Positions 9,584 through 61,700 of a DNA stretch of 64,000 nt are shown here, piece by piece. Both the position numbers and the translations under genes were made by a program. The notes beneath the pieces were generated by a model. That model made no database searches, was not told the DNA's origin, and was given only the letters and a program-made list of their open reading frames with translations. Every line of letters starts with the position of its first letter. Positions within the stretch are counted from its first letter, which is position 1. This DNA comes from a virus. The stretch lies in the IMG/VR virus record IMGVR_UViG_3300042902_000064, positions 1 to 64,000 of that record. One strand, given 5' to 3'.

Positions 9584-9606
9584 TTGGGGAAATTCGGAGA
9601 AACAAA

Positions 9607-10269
9607 ATGGTAGCATTTGCAAAAGTTAATGGTTCAGCAAAAAAAGGCGAACTAGAGTATTTCAAATTCAAAGACGGTACTAACGTATTTCGTATGTTTG
9701 GTGATATTCTAGCACGCTATGTATATTGGGTACCTACTAGAGACGGTAGTGGTTCTGTTCCTATTGAGTGTTTATCATTCGATAGACAAGAAGAACGTTT
9801 CACCAATGTAGAGCGTGATGTAGTTGCTGAGAACTTCCCAGACATTAACTGTGGTTGGGCATACATGGCGTTATGTATTGACCCTGTAGATGGGAAAGTA
9901 AAAGCTTTAGGGCTTAAGAAAAAAATGTTCGAACAAATCCTATTAGCGGCAGAGGATTTAGGCGACCCAACTGATCTAGTAGACGGCTGGGCAGTAGCAG
10001 TTAACCGTAAGAAAACTGGACCAAAAGCGTTCAATGTTGAGTATACTGTAGAGGTTCTTAAATGCCAAAAGAATAAAGTACCTTTAACAGCGGACGAACT
10101 AGCACTAGTAGAAGCATCTAAAACTGTAGATGAGTACTTCCCTAGACCTACTCCAGAAGATCAGTTAGCCTTCTTAAAACGTTCTATTCTCCCAGAAGAA
10201 GAGGAAGAAAATGTAGATGAAGAAGCGGCAGATGAGTTAGCCTCTTTAGACGACGATATTCCTATGTAA
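9607..10269 (+). CDS. putative single-stranded DNA-binding protein
   Basis: Sits in the replication module. Its strongly acidic C-terminal tail EEEEENVDEEAADELASLDDDIPM ends like the bacterial SSB tip DDDIPF. A strong terminator follows the gene. Confidence 0.55.
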   Translation: MVAFAKVNGSAKKGELEYFKFKDGTNVFRMFGDILARYVYWVPTRDGSGSVPIECLSFDRQEERFTNVERDVVAENFPDINCGWAYMALCIDPVDGKVKALGLKKKMFEQILLAAEDLGDPTDLVDGWAVAVNRKKTGPKAFNVEYTVEVLKCQKNKVPLTADELALVEASKTVDEYFPRPTPEDQLAFLKRSILPEEEEENVDEEAADELASLDDDIPM

Positions 10270-10332: not shown

Positions 10333-11304
10333 ATGAAAATACTATTTACAGCTGACCTTCATATTAAGTTAGGTCAGAAAAACGTACCAAAGGATTGGCA
10401 GAAAAACCGTTTCCAGAAGTTCTTTGAAGAATTTTGTATCCTTGCCGAAGATGCTGATATTGTTATCATTGGGGGTGATATTTTCGACAAGGCGCCAAAC
10501 CTTGAAGAACTTCAACTATATTTTCAATTAGTTACACGCCTACCTACTAAGACGTATATTTATGATGGTAACCATGAAAGTACGCGAAGAGGCAAGACCT
10601 TCTTCGAAACACTTAAGCCTGTTACAGAGGCTTTGAATAAGAACGTAACAATATTACTAGGAGCACAGCAGCTTGTAGTAGATGGTCAGAAGATCGATTT
10701 CATACCATACACAGACTTGTATAAGTTAAAAACCGACCAGTTTTCTGACTTAACTTCTGATTTACTATGTACACACTGTAGAGGAGATATTCCACCACAT
10801 GTAACTGCAGAAGTTGACCTAACACTGTTCAATAGATGGAAAACTGTACTGGCTGGAGATTTACACAGCTATAGCAATAGTCAGCGTAATATACTATATC
10901 CAGGCAGCCCACTTACTACTTCATTTCATAGAAAGGAAGTAAAGACGGGTGTTATATTATTTGATACAAAAGACCATTCTCACGTGTGGGTTGAGTTAAA
11001 ACTTCCTCAACTTATACGCAGAACAGTTGATAGTATGGAAGATGCTGTAGCTACAGGATTTCACCATACGGTTTATGAGATTGAAGGCTCAAGCTTAGAA
11101 TTGGCAGATATAGATACTAAGAATGACCTTATAGATAAGAAGCTAGTTAAAAGAGAGTATTCCTCTACTTTAGACTTAAGCAATAAAACCTTGAGAGAAG
11201 AGGTGATTATATACCTACAAGATATACAACATCTATCAAGTACGGAAGTTTCTACAGTTATGGGAGTATTTGATGATATATATACAAAAACTGCAGTGGA
11301 GTAA
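10333..11304 (+). CDS. SbcD/Mre11-type nuclease (calcineurin-like metallophosphoesterase)
   Basis: MKILFTADLHI, GGDIFD, GNHES and GDLH motifs. I place the start at ATG 10333, because the GTG at 10306 lies inside the terminator. Confidence 0.85.
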   Translation: MKILFTADLHIKLGQKNVPKDWQKNRFQKFFEEFCILAEDADIVIIGGDIFDKAPNLEELQLYFQLVTRLPTKTYIYDGNHESTRRGKTFFETLKPVTEALNKNVTILLGAQQLVVDGQKIDFIPYTDLYKLKTDQFSDLTSDLLCTHCRGDIPPHVTAEVDLTLFNRWKTVLAGDLHSYSNSQRNILYPGSPLTTSFHRKEVKTGVILFDTKDHSHVWVELKLPQLIRRTVDSMEDAVATGFHHTVYEIEGSSLELADIDTKNDLIDKKLVKREYSSTLDLSNKTLREEVIIYLQDIQHLSSTEVSTVMGVFDDIYTKTAVE

Positions 11305-52821: not shown

Positions 52822-54114
52822 TTATTCAGTTAAGTTAGGTGCATAGGAGTAAATCATATACCTTATCGCATCCGCCATGTGACTGTATTCGTTGTGTTTC
52901 GGCTTTTCCCTTTCAAGACCTGTTTTAGACTCCCAGCTATAGTTATTCAATGCAGCAATACATTTAACACATCTAGGGTCTACCTTAAGTCTATCATTAT
53001 CTATAAGCGAAGCTACGAAACCAATACCGTCTAGAACAGACTTATTACTTTTAATAGTTGTAATATCGTATGTCATTGCCAAGTCCGCACGCGTCTGGGC
53101 TGCTGCGGAGTCTATGTAGAAGAGATCGATATCCCACTTCTCCATCAACACATGTATTCTCTCAGCATGTGCTTCAGTAGATTTTTGCACCATTTCATAC
53201 TCATCTACAATATAGATATTATACCCGTCTGTAACGGCGACACAAACAGCTGTAGGATCCTTGTACCCCATATCTATCCCGCCAATTACGTCCGAAACGC
53301 CTAACATGCTAAGGTCTATATTAGTAACCATAGTTTCTGTATTAAACGCCCATATTTTTCCTTGTAAAACACTGAAGTCAGCATAGTACTCCTGCCTCCA
53401 TTCCGCATCGCTCATCGACTTCTGAGCTGCTAGAATGTCTGCTTCTAATGCTCTAGGGTTTTCATGCCAATCTGCATGTATAGTAACCCAGTCCGAAAAC
53501 TCCTCGGAAAAGCCTCTATCAAAAACAGTACTAAACCAGTTTTTACCACGAGGCGTACTAATAAAGATACACTTGCTGTTTAGCTTATCTAGTGTTGGAC
53601 GTAGTTGTATATTGAAAGCATCGCCTCCCTTATCGGCGAGGGCAGCTTCATCAAATATAATAAGATCATACGATCTACCAACAACGGAATCAGGCTGACT
53701 AACAGACCCGACACGAATTGTACTACCATTAGTAAGTTCGATAATCTTGTCTTTAGCATTTGATTTGTCCAGCTCTATGTCGAACCTACGAAGTAGTCCC
53801 TTCTGTAGATCCCAAGAAATTGTTGATAGTGAGTAGTTCGGTGCCATTATAAGTACGTTAGCCCCAGGAACTAATGATACTAGGTTCCCTACTACGTTGG
53901 ATATAAATGTCTTACCCACACGTCTACTAAGACATGCAGTTATAAAACGATACTTTGGGTCATTTACAGCGTTTATAACAGCTATCTGAGGAGCATTAGG
54001 TTTAATATCTAACATTGGTAGATAGTTTTCTATTGGGAGCTTTAAGAACCTATCGTTAATATCACGAAGGACAATCTCATCACTTCTTACGTCTGGTCTA
54101 CTTATCGTTAGCAT
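52822..54114 (-). CDS. terminase large subunit
   Basis: Walker A-like CLSRRVGKTF, Walker B LIIFDEAA, and a C-terminal RNase H-like nuclease (GGIDMGYKDPTA, YIDSAA). Confidence 0.85.
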   Translation of the reverse strand: MLTISRPDVRSDEIVLRDINDRFLKLPIENYLPMLDIKPNAPQIAVINAVNDPKYRFITACLSRRVGKTFISNVVGNLVSLVPGANVLIMAPNYSLSTISWDLQKGLLRRFDIELDKSNAKDKIIELTNGSTIRVGSVSQPDSVVGRSYDLIIFDEAALADKGGDAFNIQLRPTLDKLNSKCIFISTPRGKNWFSTVFDRGFSEEFSDWVTIHADWHENPRALEADILAAQKSMSDAEWRQEYYADFSVLQGKIWAFNTETMVTNIDLSMLGVSDVIGGIDMGYKDPTAVCVAVTDGYNIYIVDEYEMVQKSTEAHAERIHVLMEKWDIDLFYIDSAAAQTRADLAMTYDITTIKSNKSVLDGIGFVASLIDNDRLKVDPRCVKCIAALNNYSWESKTGLEREKPKHNEYSHMADAIRYMIYSYAPNLTE

Positions 54115-54146
54115 GTGTAGCCCTCATATATAAGTCGGATTTCATG

Positions 54147-54365
54147 CTATTCATCTTCTACCCCAAAATCAGGTTCGTCTATCCCACCATACGCTAGCAT
54201 TAAATAATACTCTTCTTCATTTCCATCAAATAGACTAAGTTCAAAACTACTATTTAATACTGCTAGCTCTTCTGCTACTTCTAATATAGTAAACATTATA
54301 CGGTCGCCAATATATAAGCTAAACCAAATATCCCTATATAAGCGGAATAAGGCACCGCTATACAC
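54147..54365 (-). CDS. hypothetical small acidic protein
   Basis: ORF in the track. The start is uncertain: either GTG 54365 or ATG 54296. Confidence 0.35.
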   Translation of the reverse strand: MYSGALFRLYRDIWFSLYIGDRIMFTILEVAEELAVLNSSFELSLFDGNEEEYYLMLAYGGIDEPDFGVEDE

Positions 54366-54392
54366 CCTAAGCTTATTAAGATTATTATATAC

Positions 54393-54941
54393 CTATCCAT
54401 TGTTCTTCCCACCTATAATTTGCTGTAGTAAAGAACCGTAGTTTGATGATACAGAGTCCCCAACATTGGTAATTTGTACTGCCGTTCCAACCTTAGTTCT
54501 GCCTAAAGCTTCAACTTCTAGTATTTTAAGTTGCATTTTCATTTCTTCCATTCTCATTTTATGCGCAGCTAGGAGAAGTTCTGAAATATCTTTACTACTG
54601 ACTAGTTCTGTTTCCTCCATCTCCGCCAGCTTAGCGTCGATGACGCTAGACATGGCGTTACTTATGCGACTTCTATTCATATATCCTTGGTCTAGGAAGG
54701 CTTGGTCTACTACCGTGCGTACAGATTTATGACGCATCATTTTTGTGACTTCTTCTAGAGACATACGCATTAGTTTACCTGTCTCTTTTAAATCTAGGCA
54801 TGATAAATAACACTTAGCAAATTCTAAGTGTTCAGGTGATATATTGAACTCTTCGTCTAAGACTGTTGGTTCAGGGCGACTAGAGGGCATTATCTCTAGT
54901 GAGGAATTTTGAGGTTGTGTATCGTAGTTGTCTTCTAACAT
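54393..54941 (-). CDS. putative terminase small subunit
   Basis: Sits upstream of TerL, is helical, and is the first gene after the consensus promoter. I place the start at ATG 54941, because the track start at 55001 is a TTG inside the -35 box. Confidence 0.45.
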   Translation of the reverse strand: MLEDNYDTQPQNSSLEIMPSSRPEPTVLDEEFNISPEHLEFAKCYLSCLDLKETGKLMRMSLEEVTKMMRHKSVRTVVDQAFLDQGYMNRSRISNAMSSVIDAKLAEMEETELVSSKDISELLLAAHKMRMEEMKMQLKILEVEALGRTKVGTAVQITNVGDSVSSNYGSLLQQIIGGKNNG

Positions 54942-54972
54942 GTTTTTTCCAGTATATTTAATTAATACGACC

Positions 54973-55001
54973 ATTATACAACAAGTGTGTGCGAATGTCA
55001 A
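54973..55001 (-). promoter_or_regulatory. perfect sigma-70 consensus promoter (TTGACA-17-TATAAT)
   Basis: On the - strand: TTGACA (55001-54996), 17-nt spacer, TATAAT (54978-54973). Confidence 0.75.
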
Positions 55002-55329
55002 GAAAAATATTTTTGTACCACATAAGTGTATCGATATTTTATTACTTTTTGAAATTGTGGGAGGTATGGTAGGGAGGGGAAGGATTAACGAAGTTGTAAA
55101 TCTCGGGAAACTTTGATAATTTTTTGAGGATTGGGGTGTTTGGTGTTGTGGAAGACAAGTCTCGGTAGCTTTCGCTTATTGGTGGCGGTTGTTGGAAACA
55201 AGGGAAGATTAGGGCATTTGTATTGATGTGTATAGATAGACCTTTCTTATAAAACGAAAAAATCCAAATGGTTTACGCGCGGGTGGGCTCTCCTGCAAGA
55301 ACTGTGCCATGTCTGATAACCGCCCCCAT

Positions 55330-55457
55330 TGGCACGGATCTTGCTAGGGATTCCAGATGGCACGGATCTTGCTAGGGATTCCAGATGGCATGGATCTTGC
55401 TAGGGATTCCAGATGGCATGGATCTTGCTAGGGATTCCAGATGGCATGGATCTTGCC
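55330..55457 (+). repeat. tandem array of 4.5 x 28 bp, each unit carrying a sigma-54 -24/-12-like core
   Basis: Unit: ggca(c/t)ggatcttgctagggattccagat. Cores TGGCA(C/T)GGATCTTGC(T/C) lie at 55330, 55358, 55386, 55414 and 55442. Every unit contains a GATC. Confidence 0.9.
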
Positions 55458-55779: not shown

Positions 55780-56199
55780 ATGACAACTTCAACAACTGCA
55801 ACAAAATCAGCGGTCGCCAACTATGACGCGGATACAACTAGCCAAGTGATCAAGGCGATGCAAGGCGTAAAAAACCACGCCGATCAAGTCGCCGCGATCA
55901 TTGGCTTAATGCTATCAACTGGAAAAAATAAAAGGTCTTTAACTGCTAAAATCAGCAACCTGAGCCGCGATGCAGAAAACAAGATCACGTTTTACGGGGT
56001 AGAAAAAAACACCACGAAAACAGGATCAAAGGTAGAAAGCAAAGCGATCAAGGTTCAACAGATCGAAAAATTGATCGGTGGTGGTGTTCAACTTGATAGC
56101 ATGGAGAAATGTACCAAACATGATCTAGATATTATCTTAGGTGCGCTGTCAATGACTGAGGAAGAAATCGCCGACCTTAATGACGATCAAGCAATCTAA
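55780..56199 (+). CDS. DNA-binding-like protein, paralogue of 58767-59123
   Basis: The two proteins align along their length: Y.(D/E)D.T, S(L/V)(T/R)AK(I/L), K(N/T)TK(T/S)G, (L/I)..I..L(I/M)G.....(M/L)EK.TK..L..I. Confidence 0.65.
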   Translation: MTTSTTATKSAVANYDADTTSQVIKAMQGVKNHADQVAAIIGLMLSTGKNKRSLTAKISNLSRDAENKITFYGVEKNTTKTGSKVESKAIKVQQIEKLIGGGVQLDSMEKCTKHDLDIILGALSMTEEEIADLNDDQAI

Positions 56200-56216
56200 A
56201 AACCGTTAAACCTTGC

Positions 56217-56240
56217 AAGGTCGCCGCCTTTGGCGACCTT
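56217..56240 (+). promoter_or_regulatory. intergenic 9-bp-stem hairpin (attenuator or processing site candidate)
   Basis: aaggtcgcc-gccttt-ggcgacctt. Only a weak T-run follows. Confidence 0.4.
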
Positions 56241-56259
56241 CACTTTAGGATCTAAAATT

Positions 56260-56508
56260 ATGAATAACGAAATATACGATGACTCGATAGAAAACTATAA
56301 TCAAACGATTATAACAGGACTCGAAATGGTTGCGGCGATCTTAACGGTGGCTGGCTTATACTTACTTACTATAGGCGTCGCGCTTGGGTTTATTTTAGGC
56401 GCGTTGGGTTGCGTGGCTTGGCTGATTGTTGCGTTAAGCAATAAGTTATACTATTTAGCCGCCTTAAACGTTGCCCTTTTTATTATCAACGTATCAGGTG
56501 CGATATAA
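56260..56508 (+). CDS. small integral membrane protein (about 3 TM segments)
   Basis: I place the start at ATG 56260. It is preceded by AGGATCTAAAA, the same RBS context as gene 55780. The sequence has hydrophobic stretches. Confidence 0.6.
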   Translation: MNNEIYDDSIENYNQTIITGLEMVAAILTVAGLYLLTIGVALGFILGALGCVAWLIVALSNKLYYLAALNVALFIINVSGAI

Positions 56509-57206
56509 TGAAAAAGCAATTTTATATTATAGTAGACACTGAAACGACAGAGGAAGATACGGTCGCGGACTTTGGCGCGGTGGTATGTGATCGGCACGGT
56601 GTGATCTTCCACGAGATCGGCGTACTTGTCGCGGGTGAATTTGGCGAGAAAAAACTGTTCCACGATCAGAACAGTAAATTAGAGATCTGGAACATGAGAG
56701 GCTTACAAAGAAGAACCGAAAATTATAATAGTATGCTTAACAGCGGATCGCGGGTACTGGCAAGCGTTAATGCGATCAACCGCTGGTTAGACAAAGCGAT
56801 CAGCTTATACAATCCTGAGCTGACAGCGTATAATCTAGCCTTTGATCTTGGAAAATGTGCGAATACTGGAATTGATCTCACTCGCTTTGATCGTCGTTTT
56901 TGCCTTTGGCAAGCGAGCGTGGGTAATATCTGTAACACGAAAAAATACAAAAAATTTGTTTTAGATAATCACTACTTCAACAACAGAACCGAAAAAGGCA
57001 ATATGACGATCCAAACTAGCGCGGAGCGCGTCACTCACTTTGTGACGGGCGCGGATCTTACTGAGCCGCATACAGCCTTAGAAGATGCGCGAGACTTTGA
57101 GCTAAAAATATTAAAGCACATACTAAAGAAGCGGGCTTGGCGTGAAAATATGAGACCGTATAGCTGGCACGACCATCAACTAAATAACCATTTTTCCGCT
57201 AATTAA
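56508..57206 (+). CDS. DEDDh (DnaQ-like) 3'-5' exonuclease
   Basis: Exo I IIVDTETT, Exo II AYNLAFD, Exo III HTALEDARD. Confidence 0.8.
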   Translation: MKKQFYIIVDTETTEEDTVADFGAVVCDRHGVIFHEIGVLVAGEFGEKKLFHDQNSKLEIWNMRGLQRRTENYNSMLNSGSRVLASVNAINRWLDKAISLYNPELTAYNLAFDLGKCANTGIDLTRFDRRFCLWQASVGNICNTKKYKKFVLDNHYFNNRTEKGNMTIQTSAERVTHFVTGADLTEPHTALEDARDFELKILKHILKKRAWRENMRPYSWHDHQLNNHFSAN

Positions 57207-57257
57207 ATAATCAACTAGCGCGATCCCGAAAGGGATCGCCACTTGGGGCAAAATAAA

Positions 57258-57743
57258 ATGAAAAATAAAATTATAACTTTTGATTTCGATGGCGTGCTTG
57301 CTGATAGCTCGAATCGTTACCAACTAGCAAAAACCGAACCGCACGAAAAACCACGGATCGATCTTCAACACTGGCGCGATAATTCTCATAAAGTAGCGGA
57401 GGATCTTCCTATAGCGGAAAATATCGCGCTTTATAACGCGGCGATCAAAGATCCGACCGTGGTGGTCGTTATCGCGACCGCTAGGGTATGGTGTGAACTT
57501 TCGGATCGGTGGGTCTTTGATCATCTTGATGCCTTTCCAGATTACCTGAGCCATAGGATCAACGAGGAAGATCAACGACCTGCCAACGATATAAAAGGCG
57601 TTTTTGTTGCTTCACTTTTGCAGATATACAAATCAATAAAAACGGTCGTATTTTATGATGATAATCTAGAATACTTAAAACAATTTAAGCAAGCGATACC
57701 ACACGCTGAAACGATTCATATATTGAGCAATCAAGGGTACTAG
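57258..57743 (+). CDS. HAD-superfamily 5'(3')-deoxyribonucleotidase-like phosphatase
   Basis: ITFDFDGVLADS (DxDGV motif I, as in the NT5C family DMDGVLADF). VIATAR and YDDN resemble motifs II-IV. I place the start at ATG 57258. Confidence 0.65.
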   Translation: MKNKIITFDFDGVLADSSNRYQLAKTEPHEKPRIDLQHWRDNSHKVAEDLPIAENIALYNAAIKDPTVVVVIATARVWCELSDRWVFDHLDAFPDYLSHRINEEDQRPANDIKGVFVASLLQIYKSIKTVVFYDDNLEYLKQFKQAIPHAETIHILSNQGY

Positions 57744-57844: not shown

Positions 57845-57879
57845 AAAAAAACCCGTTATTATATAGCGGGTTTTTTTTT
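57845..57879. terminator. bidirectional rho-independent terminator
   Basis: A7-acccg ... cgggt-T9. Confidence 0.7.
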
Positions 57880-57895
57880 GCCAAAAATAAAAACT

Positions 57896-57911
57896 TGGCA
57901 CGAATTTTGCG
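57896..57911 (+). promoter_or_regulatory. solitary sigma-54 -24/-12-like element TGGCACGAATTTTGCG
   Basis: Matches TGGCACG-N4-TTGC with exact GG/GC spacing. A weaker copy, TGGCATGGCGTTAGCC, lies at 57918-57933. Confidence 0.45.
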
Positions 57912-57944: not shown

Positions 57945-58033
57945 CGCGCCGTAAATGCGAATCATTCTCATTTAGATTTGCACTTAGGTTTACGCCCGCA
58001 AATGTAAATAAGAATGATTCGCATTTGGGCGCG
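57945..58033. repeat. 89-nt inverted repeat (about 33 bp of potential stem)
   Basis: Perfect 16-bp arms aaatgcgaatcattct (57953-57968) / agaatgattcgcattt (58011-58026). Extended outward by cgcgcc/ggcgcg and inward by attta/taaat and atttgc/gcaaat. Confidence 0.85.
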
Positions 58034-58104
58034 CCGAAAAATGCACGGACTCCCACGATACCATGATATCAGGTTACTTGTCCACATGCAAATTTATTTT
58101 ACCA

Positions 58105-58233
58105 TGCAAGAATCATGCCATGAAAAAACAAGCAAGAATCATGCCATGAAAAAACAAGCAAGAATCATGCCATGAAAAAACAAGCAAGAATCATGCCATG
58201 AAAAAACAAGCAAGAATCATGCCATGAAAAAAC
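58105..58233 (-). repeat. tandem array of 5 x 26 bp carrying sigma-54 -24/-12-like cores on the - strand
   Basis: + strand unit: gcaagaatcatgccatgaaaaaacaa. Its reverse complement contains TGGCATGATTCTTGC(T/A). The core is the same as in the 55.3-kb array but in inverted orientation. Confidence 0.9.
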
Positions 58234-58461
58234 GTCAATTTTTTGACGCGTCAATTTTTTGACTGTCAATTTTTTGACGCGTCATTTTTTTGACGTCAAT
58301 TTTTTGACTGTCAATTTTTTGACGCGGCATTTTTTTGACGTCAATTTTTTGACTGTCAATTTTTTGACTGTCAATTTTTTGACGCGGCATTTTTTTGACG
58401 CGTCAATTTTTTGACGCGTCATTTTTTTGACGTCAATTTTTTGACGCGTCAATTTTTTGAC
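58234..58461. repeat. 15 tandem copies of a 14-nt unit GTCAA-TTTT-TTGAC (spacers 0-2 nt)
   Basis: 11 x GTCAATTTTTTGAC, 2 x GTCATTTTTTTGAC, 2 x GGCATTTTTTTGAC. The 5-nt arms are reverse complements of each other. Confidence 0.9.
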
Positions 58462-58591
58462 GGTAGCACAAAAAGCGCAAGCTTTTTGCGCCAGTGCGCA
58501 ACTGCAATTTTTTTCAAGTGCATGAGTGCCGTGGGGGCAGGTGCGTGCAGACAGTGCCAGAGCGACATATGTCAAGTAAATATTTTTAAAC

Positions 58592-58620
58592 TTGATTATA
58601 GTTCCTGATCGGCGTATAAT
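58592..58620 (+). promoter_or_regulatory. sigma-70-like promoter TTGATT-17-TATAAT
   Basis: Hexamers at 58592-58597 and 58615-58620. Confidence 0.6.
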
Positions 58621-58680: not shown

Positions 58681-58709
58681 TTGACTTCTGACCTCATCAA
58701 GCGTATAAT
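58681..58709 (+). promoter_or_regulatory. sigma-70-like promoter TTGACT-17-TATAAT
   Basis: Hexamers at 58681-58686 and 58704-58709, about 58 nt upstream of ATG 58767. Confidence 0.7.
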
Positions 58710-58766: not shown

Positions 58767-59123
58767 ATGACTGACAAAGCTAAAGTAACAGGTGCTCGTT
58801 ATACTGAAGATCAAACACTAGAGTTGGTAGAAGCATATACAGCCGTTGAAACACAAGAAGCACGCGACGCAGTGGTATCTACTTATGCCGCTAAGTTCGA
58901 ACGCCCAGTAGCCTCCGTTAGAGCGAAGCTCGCATCTGAGCGGGTTTATGTACCTAAAGCTAAGACTACTAAATCTGGCGATCCTATCGTTCGTAAAGAC
59001 CAGCTAGTAGCTCAAATTGCCCACCTAATGGGTGAGTCAGAAGAAGCGGTTGAGTGCCTAGAAAAGGTTACTAAACCTGTACTACAAAAAATCATCACTC
59101 AACTAACTTCCCCTTGGGAGTAA
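58767..59123 (+). CDS. DNA-binding-like protein, paralogue of 55780-56199
   Basis: I place the start at ATG 58767, with a GGAGGA SD. See the alignment motifs listed for 55780-56199. The N-terminal domain also resembles the repeats of 1331-2071. Confidence 0.7.
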   Translation: MTDKAKVTGARYTEDQTLELVEAYTAVETQEARDAVVSTYAAKFERPVASVRAKLASERVYVPKAKTTKSGDPIVRKDQLVAQIAHLMGESEEAVECLEKVTKPVLQKIITQLTSPWE

Positions 59124-59200: not shown

Positions 59201-59230
59201 ATTATACGCCTCCCAAATACTTTTTGTCAA
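59201..59230 (-). promoter_or_regulatory. sigma-70 consensus hexamers TTGACA-18-TATAAT on the - strand, facing the 3' end of gene 58767-59123
   Basis: TTGACA (59230-59225), 18-nt spacer, TATAAT (59206-59201). Confidence 0.55.
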
Positions 59231-59500
59231 GTCAATTTCAAACTCAGTTTTTCAAAAGTGCATAGTCTGTTTTTGTGTAGTCTATTTATACCGCCCCCTC
59301 GGCGCCAGTGCTCAACTGTAAATTTTCAGGGCGCCCATTATAACACACAGACATACATAGTTGTCAACTGTGTTTTCCGGCAGTGGGTTGCCCAGATTTT
59401 AAGAAGAGGGAAGTCTGTCCCGTGTCCCAGGACTAGGGACACCAAGCAATTACTTTTTTGTAAATGTCAAGTATTATTTCTCCCCAATTGTATATAACTG

Positions 59501-59532
59501 CCCCTATCCGCCGCTTCGCGGCTAGACGGGGG
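59501..59532 (+). repeat. conserved ~33-nt hairpin element, copy 1
   Basis: CCCCTATCC-GCCGCTTCGCGGC-TAGAC-GGGGG: an inner GCCGC/GCGGC stem and an outer CCCC/GGGG stem. Confidence 0.6.
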
Positions 59533-59858: not shown

Positions 59859-59893
59859 CCCCCTATTTGCCGCTTCGCGGCAGGTTGGGGAGG
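59859..59893 (+). repeat. conserved ~33-nt hairpin element, copy 2
   Basis: CCCCCTATTT-GCCGCTTCGCGGC-AGGTT-GGGGAGG, in the same orientation as copy 1. Confidence 0.6.
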
Positions 59894-60663: not shown

Positions 60664-60736
60664 GTATTCTCCTCCCCATCCACGCTGCTACGCAGCAAAC
60701 AAGGGCAGCAAATAGGTTAAGTAATTAGTTAATATT

Positions 60737-61627: not shown

Positions 61628-61640
61628 TAATCTTCTCTAT

Positions 61641-61700
61641 ATCTAGAATAGGTTATTGTATCTAGAATTTTTATATCTAGAATAGTGTGTTATCTAGAAT
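61641..61700. promoter_or_regulatory. four spaced copies of ATCTAGAAT (TCTAGA palindrome core) upstream of gene 60737-61627
   Basis: Copies at 61641, 61660, 61675 and 61692. A fifth, TTCTAGAAT, lies at 60735-60743 and overlaps the stop codon of the same gene. Confidence 0.5.

Follow-up and report, generated by a model that had tools for sequence, protein, structure and literature searches.

The first 64,000 nucleotides of the IMG/VR virus record IMGVR_UViG_3300042902_000064 (positions 1 to 64,000, the whole stretch analysed here and hereafter the window) hold, between a putative pre-early operon and a gene for an A2-like protein, a tandem array of 15 short palindromes at 58234–58461. Each 14-nt unit reads GTCA-(A/T)TTTTT-TGAC, the linkers between units measure 0–2 nt, and the T-tract lies on the + strand in 15 of 15 units. 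The array is a variant of a known, mechanistically unsolved kind of element, and we tentatively place it at the boundary of the first-step-transfer (FST) DNA of a T5-like phage, which in T5 is the injection stop signal (iss).

The units are highly uniform: 11 are exactly GTCAATTTTTTGAC, two are GTCATTTTTTTGAC and two are GGCATTTTTTTGAC, and the linkers (gc seven times, t four times, none three times) set the unit starts 14–16 bp apart. A pattern search with GTCAATTTTTTGAC that allowed up to two mismatches returned exactly 15 matches in the window, every one at 58234–58461, against a mean of 0.71 and a maximum of four in shuffled sequences, and Tandem Repeats Finder called the same array at 58233–58462 (period 16, 15.0 copies). 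The count of 15 made by a first-pass annotation of this DNA is thus exact, and the search for the 14-mer elsewhere that it had proposed brought up no further copy in these 64 kb. The pattern GTCA-N6-TGAC, for which base composition predicts 0.78 occurrences in the window, has 13, and 13 of 13 fall within the array. The copies are near-identical, and higher-order 45-bp blocks are visible among them. Because two independent assemblies also carry the array, L008 (JGI sample 3300044482) and L007 (Logan SRR35182500, whose contig begins inside it), it is not an assembly artefact of a single data set. The − strand open reading frame (ORF) of 97 amino acids at 58282–58575 translates the repeat into a periodic peptide of KKLT type and matches only other repeat copies; it is therefore an artefact, as the annotation had held. 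The suggestion that the TTGAC pentamers serve as −35-like elements fared worse, as no −10 element accompanies them and promoter calling gave no site within the array.

Protein matches identify the window as part of a distant marine T5-like phage, lytic and of T5 type. Its large terminase subunit (TerL, 52822–54114) is 48% identical to those of Ermolyevavirinae, of Vibrio and enterobacterial Demerecviridae and of other T5-like phages, the small subunit (TerS, 54393–55001) matches a PHROG terminase small subunit family, and the ORF at 1331–2071 is the orthologue of T5 D5, with 42–47% identity to D5 of T5-like phages and the PHROG description 'D5-like'. The terminase genes lie on the − strand (52822–55001) and are followed by a region of A2-type genes, a T5-type 'terminase then terminal-repeat' junction whose order is common to the window, T5 and Vibrio phage PVo5. 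The putative pre-early operon (55780–57743, + strand) comprises four genes, encoding a first A2-like protein (55780–56199), a small membrane protein (56230–56508), a DnaQ-like exonuclease-like protein (56508–57206, PHROG 20187) and a HAD phosphatase (57258–57743). A terminator-like hairpin with a T-run (57849–57879, + strand) closes it, and the repeat region then begins. Beyond the repeats stands the second A2-like gene (58767–59123, + strand, 118 amino acids; Pfam PF26822 Phage_T5_A2; PHROG 1725 'DNA binding protein'), of which the first is a paralogue. At the DNA level, neither the array region nor the 24 kb around it resembles any cultured phage; a tblastn search of phage records with the A2-like protein gave no match, IMG/VR holds no close relatives of the A2-like gene, and no Rfam family came near any gathering score for the region.

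Immediately right of the array, a hairpin (AAAAAGC-GCAA-GCTTTTT, 58470–58487) leads into a conserved box, GCGCCAGTGCGCAACTGCAATTTTTTTCAAGTGC (58488–58525, + strand), in which GCGCCAGT is invariant in all relatives. Two sigma70-like promoters follow on the + strand, TTGATT-17-TATAAT at 58592–58620, 130 bp downstream of the array, and TTGACT-17-TATAAT at 58681–58709, which would serve the second A2-like gene; both are conserved in relatives. A second copy of the GCGCCAGTGC..AACTG.AA box, 88% identical, stands at 59302–59326 (+ strand), so that two copies 814 bp apart bracket this A2-like gene as a direct repeat. On its left, the array directly adjoins a perfect array of 4.9 copies of a 26-bp unit at 58106–58233, again called by Tandem Repeats Finder.

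Two features tie this region to the iss of T5. First, the non-coding DNA at 57.88–58.53 kb carries words that, to judge from the sequences compared, are found elsewhere only in the iss of T5 and of a Vibrio T5-like phage. The window has three copies of AATGMGAATSATT, confined to 57954–58026, against about 0.008 expected, and the examined 22 kb of T5 also has three, all within the annotated iss (9587–9668). The corresponding regions of L009, L025 and L029 have it too, and T5-like marine loci (708 kb) hold nine matches against about 0.08 expected. In the window an inverted repeat with 29-nt arms, 93% complementary (57953–58026), is built from this word, AATG(A/C)GAAT(C/G)ATT. Two more words, GGCGCGCCGAAA and CAAGAAYCRWGCC, are common to the window and the 1.4-kb iss-like region of PVo5; the 12-mer GGCGCGCCGAAA (58028–58039, + strand; L014:3548 in PVo5) is present as a single copy in each sequence.

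Second, the array adjoins a conserved hairpin and GCGC element that is built like the T5 major nick site. At that site (9748/9749, − strand) GCGC adjoins the hairpin CAGGGCAATTGCCCTG, and a tandem array of 4.1 copies of a 23-bp unit lies just to its left. Read on the − strand, the box at 58488–58525 gives ACTGG/GCGC, a purine (A) and then the hairpin, resembling the T5 nick consensus R/GCGCRGG (PMC3517423), and next comes the 14-mer array. As order and strand relative to TerL are those of T5, the array is the positional equivalent of the T5 tandem repeats, which are among the best iss candidates according to Davison (bioRxiv 10.1101/866236). The iss-like region of PVo5 (L014 2222–3650) has its own repeats, with about ten copies of CTAGGT-TTTGC-ACCTAG, three TTATCCACA DnaA boxes and 8-bp TAGAAGGC repeats; judging by its palindromes, T5-like phages seem in general to carry a short palindrome in many copies at this locus.

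Relatives at the same locus show which parts are constant. The comparison set consists of homologues of the A2-like gene (41–100% identity) on short metagenome contigs, many of which break in or beside the repeat region. All share the two sigma70-like promoters, an element of about 130 nt that begins with GCGCCAGT and, just before it, a hairpin of 5–9 bp. The hairpin is lineage-specific in sequence, with at least five unrelated stems among L009, L012, L022, L025, L026, L029 and L034, and a tandem repeat always lies directly upstream of it, its kind differing between lineages. The GTCA-N6-TGAC palindrome, with 15 units in the window, is found in 11 units in L008, whose A2-like protein is 100% identical and whose DNA differs by a clean 60-bp (four-unit) indel and is otherwise identical. 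There are six units in L025 (A2-like protein 87% identical), at least six with different spacers in L026 (73%), and two plus two in L022, which has no A2-like ORF on its contig. Other lineages carry other repeats at this place: three copies of a repeat of about 32 bp in L027–L032 (69% identical A2-like protein), GAATGATTCGTATTTAGATT-type repeats in L009 (66%) and four copies of TTAGCATA in L034 (67%). When IMG/VR was scanned with the conserved box GCGCCAGTGCNNAACTGYAA, the one match was a chance one, in coding DNA.

Within the palindrome, the pattern of change is informative. Across the window, L025, L026 and L022, entropy per position is about zero in the arms and 0.4–1.0 bits in the spacer; GTCA and TGAC are near-invariant in these four lineages, positions 5–9, linkers and copy number drift, and the arms are kept even between lineages too diverged in their flanking non-coding DNA to be aligned there. 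Conserved arms around a drifting spacer point to recognition by a symmetric dimer with half-sites one helical turn apart. They also bear out the annotation's view that the 14-mer, and not the more variable palindromes formed at the junctions between units, is the recognised unit.

Putting these observations together, we favour a reading to which we give a probability of about 40%: that the array is the form which the tandem-repeat module of a T5-type FST boundary takes in this lineage, and that symmetric dimers of a DNA-binding protein other than A2 or D5 dock on it with high avidity. Tandem arrays stand at exactly this position in T5 and in all relatives, the sister lineages having other repeats. 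Each 14-mer would be bound by one dimer, with half-site centres 10 bp apart, and 15 abutting sites at a pitch of 14–16 bp could carry a continuous nucleoprotein coat of about 230 bp. Such a coat may mark, hold or insulate the DNA at the FST boundary and so take part in arresting or organising entry of the genome. Of the roles that the first-pass annotation had offered for a binding platform, recognition by a dimer is favoured by arm conservation, and a nucleoprotein plug by the iss-homologous region and the nick-site-like hairpin beside the array; the centromere-like and iteron-like roles were not borne out.

Several points weigh against this reading. No homologue of T5 A1 or of a T5-type dmp was detected in the window, so that two-step transfer is only a presumption for this phage; the DnaQ-like exonuclease-like protein and the HAD phosphatase could stand in for A1, in degrading host DNA, and for Dmp. 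The T5 iss lies near the inner end of a long direct terminal repeat and arrests DNA transfer in cis until A1 and A2 relieve it; a 64-kb window can contain just one copy of such a repeat, and neither terminal-repeat boundaries nor nicks are visible in it. Exact k-mer sharing over the whole region with the iss of T5 and of PVo5 is not above controls, so the homology rests on specific words and on architecture. Paired DnaA boxes are a conserved iss feature according to Davison (bioRxiv 10.1101/866236); boxes of the form TTWTNCACA number three in the 64 kb against 7.3 expected, with none at 57.88–58.77 kb. Copy number does vary, an outcome of the kind that the annotation had named as speaking against its reading: close relatives hold 15, 11 or six units. 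The motif is missing from sister lineages whose A2-like protein is 66–69% identical, and in 80 further T5-like marine loci (708 kb) at most a single such palindrome is present per locus, so that it is dispensable for the lineage as a whole. Finally, no binder was identified.

The annotation's candidates for that role were the two A2-like proteins and the D5 orthologue, and neither kind is a likely specific binder. The A2-like proteins encoded at 55780 and 58767 are paralogues of one family, and the segments conserved in them do not differ between lineages that have the 14-mer and lineages that lack it. D5, encoded in the window at 1331, is kept in T5, whose examined 22 kb has no GTCA-N6-TGAC site. 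A structural model of the A2-like protein (pLDDT 81.6, two three-helix bundles) has no significant fold match and no sequence match in the PDB and so says little about specificity. As for the two families themselves, the A2-family hidden Markov model also matches the D5 orthologue (E = 3e-8), and the latter contains a weak sigma70 region-4-like helix-turn-helix (HTH; Pfam E = 8e-5, below the family cut-off). As to IHF, whose sites (WATCAANNNNTTR) have a conserved TCAA-N4-TTR core, the 11 exact units contain TCAATTTTTTG, but variant units of the window, of L026 and of L084 lose that core and retain GTCA and TGAC. The binder is probably neither A2 nor D5; since unrelated marine phages use the same 14-mer in small clusters, a host protein or a phage protein particular to the lineage is the likelier candidate.

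Exact tandem pairs of the 14-mer were found at four IMG/VR (viral) and nine metagenome loci, forming about seven unrelated groups, and at none in 596 Gb of bacterial genomes, where relaxed motif pairs gave 57 scattered loci with no taxon signal. The motif-bearing groups include phages of HMO-2011/CRP-1 type (helicase 77% identical) and of HTVC027P type (TerL 63% identical). CRP-1, a cultured relative of one motif-bearing contig, has no site in 50 kb, and no protein is common to the window and the other motif-bearing contigs (blastp, 1e-4). Clusters elsewhere usually have 2–4 sites, typically three, and often the same GC linker. At least 14 units at a 14-bp pitch in L021 (TARA contig, 730–900), together with a 1.2-kb metagenome contig (L084, 1–1211) that consists wholly of units of about 35 bp with two GTCA-N6-TGAC palindromes each, indicate that large arrays of this palindrome occur in other elements.

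In unrelated phages the motif resembles an ordinary promoter-upstream operator, a further point against the boundary reading: 7 of 11 clusters on such contigs are followed, at 29–155 bp, by a sigma70-like promoter directed away from them. The array in the window could accordingly be an over-amplified cluster of this kind, through which a repressor or activator controls the sigma70 promoters at 58592 and 58681, the nearer and conserved one 130 bp away, or shields them from the operon upstream. In the L016/L020 lineage an XRE-family HTH gene lies about 430 bp from the cluster and would suit such a role; its product was rejected as a candidate binder of the 14-mer in general, since neither the window nor the other contigs encode a relative of it. 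The window holds no further copy of the motif that could make up a regulon and no XRE-like protein, relatives keep the same promoters without the array, and a distance of 130–360 bp and a number of 15 are atypical of operators. We therefore hold an operator array to be possible and rather doubtful.

A neutral origin is unlikely in our estimate, although the dynamics of the array invite it. Slippage or unequal crossover could have expanded one short palindrome into a hypervariable satellite whose present copy number has no function, and the near-identical copies, the 45-bp blocks, the clean 60-bp indel relative to L008, the spread of six, 11 and 15 copies and the sister lineages without the array would all follow; two other words in the same phage have also been amplified to near-perfect arrays. 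What drift alone would explain poorly is that arms are kept and spacers drift amid flanks diverged beyond alignment, that the motif recurs in about seven independent phage groups, and that a tandem array occupies the exact position in T5 and in all relatives.

The two other amplified words bring in sigma54. The unit of the adjoining array, TGGCATGATTCTTGCT, resembles a sigma54 −24/−12 promoter on the − strand and points left, away from the 14-mers; further left, 4.5 copies of a 28-bp unit, TGGCACGGATCTTGCT (55330–55456, + strand), contain the perfect −24/−12 consensus TGGCACG-N4-TTGCT. The two arrays stand in opposite orientation on either side of the putative pre-early operon. Matches to TGGCAY-N5-TTGC number 12 in the window against 0.12 expected and are confined to these two repeat regions (55295–55309, −; 55330–55456, five on +; 57896–57910, +; 58106–58224, five on −). 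By motif, then, both neighbours of the 14-mer array consist of sigma54-like promoter elements in tandem. The word is kept in the T5-like relatives PVo5, L029, L095, L096, L099 and L154 and is absent from T5.

On this basis the 14-mers might be an upstream activating sequence at which a bacterial enhancer-binding protein acts on the five leftward TGGCATGATTCTTGC elements (− strand, 58106–58224), perhaps also on the five rightward ones at 55330–55456, the abutting arrays forming one control unit. The 14-mer array lies 0–230 bp upstream of the leftward elements, immediately behind them as they point away, and its GT-N10-AC core resembles the sites of NifA (TGT-N10-ACA) and of GlrR (TGTC-N10-GACA, three times at glmY). 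Yet no sigma54-like element lies near the 14-mer clusters of L002, L004, L005, L016 and L019–L023, and the window encodes no enhancer-binding protein, the sole GAFTGA-like match being a chance one in a 469-residue late-region ORF without a Walker A motif. In L029, for instance, the elements are packed in both orientations, an arrangement more suggestive of words bound by a protein than of promoters. For T5, every gene class has been reported as sigma70-dependent (PMC7472727), and we found no literature linking sigma54 to T5-like phages. A sigma54 enhancer is thus quite improbable.

Bolder still, and in our view very improbable, is a scheme in which all three arrays, two of sigma54 type and one of 15 palindromes, are one device. 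Closed complexes of host sigma54-RNA polymerase, which cannot open without an activator, would load together with a palindrome-binding dimer on the first-entering DNA and make up a physical checkpoint that holds back entry, or gates pre-early expression, until the A2-like proteins release it. If true, this would be a T5-type injection stop built on host factors and the first sigma54-dependent control in a T5-like phage.

That the DNA acts through its own structure, as cruciforms, slipped strands, hairpins or a string of intrinsic terminators and not through a sequence-specific protein, has very little probability. Single-strand folding of the array is far better than that of shuffles (z = −11.5 as DNA, −12.8 as RNA), as expected of any string of palindromes, and the T5 iss is described as palindrome-rich. 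Unit stems have just 5 bp and A/T-rich loops, and a series of intrinsic terminators was rejected because a G+C-rich stem with a T-run exists at one site (58396–58421, T7 tail) and not at most units, where stems of 5–6 bp have no adjacent T-run. Intrinsic curvature, as predicted with wedge parameters, is low (the end-to-end/contour ratio is 0.956; genomic windows give 0.921 and a phased A-tract control gives 0.686), and conservation of the exact arm sequence, beyond mere complementarity, favours readout by a protein. A plasmid-type centromere or iteron origin, which the tandem identical palindromic sites bring to mind through F sopC and R1 parC, can practically be dismissed, as none of 12 ORFs tested at 52.2–63.6 kb (several small ORFs at 59.2–62.2 kb left out) matches ParA/ParM/TubZ-type partition, centromere-binding or Rep initiator families, DnaA boxes are not enriched, the phage is of lytic T5 type and T5 origins map mid-genome.

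Some other features of the surrounding DNA deserve mention. Perfect-consensus sigma70 promoters (TTGACA-17/18-TATAAT) occur on the − strand at 59201–59230, antisense to the 3′ end of the A2-like gene, and at 54973–55001, where the promoter overlaps the first codons of the TerS ORF (54393–55001, annotated start TTG). Between TerS and the first A2-like gene, a G-rich, purine-rich tract at 55050–55230 (GGGAGGGGAAGG...) resembles the inner end of the T5 terminal repeat (L001 10000–10150), and GATAACCGCCCCC at 55316–55328 resembles ATAACCGCCC at 10390–10430 of that same end; both are kept in L095 (TerL 91% identical). A 31-nt G+C-rich hairpin element, CCCCTATCCGCCGCTTCGCGGCTAGACGGGG, has three copies (59501–59531, 59860–59890 and 60675–60705), and a similar sequence begins L011. 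The next non-coding gap, upstream of a − strand gene of 296 codons, has 1.9 copies of a 34-bp repeat with TATATCTAGAATAG (61638–61700).

How T5 stops the entry of its DNA after about 8% of the genome has been an open question since the 1960s. The T5 region is too intricate for easy dissection, and the marine relative described here is much simpler, with one clean palindrome repeated 15 times and a hairpin and GCGC element beside it. Natural variants with 11, six or no copies, or with another repeat, constitute an allelic series for the function of the tandem-repeat module, and the array itself could be used as bait in pull-downs. Use of the 14-mer by unrelated marine phages of HMO-2011 and HTVC027P type further hints at a widespread DNA-binding factor.

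Among known systems, plasmid centromeres (F sopC with 12 repeats of 43 bp, R1 parC, TP228 parH) are like the array in having near-identical tandem sites that a dimeric protein can coat, and they differ in lifestyle and in their partition genes, as the 12 neighbouring ORFs tested hold no match to a partition NTPase or centromere-binding protein. The enhancers of the sigma54 activators GlrR and NifA share with it tandem GT...AC palindromes immediately upstream of −24/−12-like elements; the window differs in its spacing of TGTC-N8-GACA, its 15 copies and the lack of sigma54-like elements alongside the motif in other phages that use it. Lambdoid tripartite operators (OR/OL), bound by HTH dimers of CI/Cro type, also have palindromic half-sites one helical turn apart and find a counterpart in the 2–4-site clusters just upstream of promoters in unrelated marine phages, whereas the virulent phage of the window has 15 copies, no nearby repressor gene and no second operator set in the window.

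The closest parallels lie in the T5-like phages themselves. Their dispersed iss repeats (T5 DRD, TGTGCAAATCCGACA, nine copies; PVo5 CTAGGTTTTGCACCTAG, about ten copies) are likewise short motifs in many copies, some of them full and some partial palindromes, and they too lie where the FST DNA has its distal end. They share with the 14-mer a T-run followed by G(C)AC, a resemblance that is at best weak, and in contrast to the array they are mostly dispersed and lie on the opposite side of nick and hairpin. Compared with the T5 iss, or Repeat Region 3 of the left terminal repeat (Heusterspreute 1987; Wang 2005; Davison, bioRxiv 10.1101/866236), the window has a clean palindrome in 15 abutting copies in place of a different 23-bp repeat in 4.1 copies, no paired DnaA boxes, no A1 gene seen and a putative FST unit of just about 3.3 kb. 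Even so, both regions are untranslated, stand beside A2-type genes and follow the terminase end of the late genes; both contain the word AATG(A/C)GAAT(C/G)ATT; in T5 the inverted copies IRC and IRD have a likeness in the one word that, inverted, flanks the pre-early-like operon of the window; and in both a tandem array lies directly beside a hairpin and GCGC element, which in T5 is the 7.9% nick.

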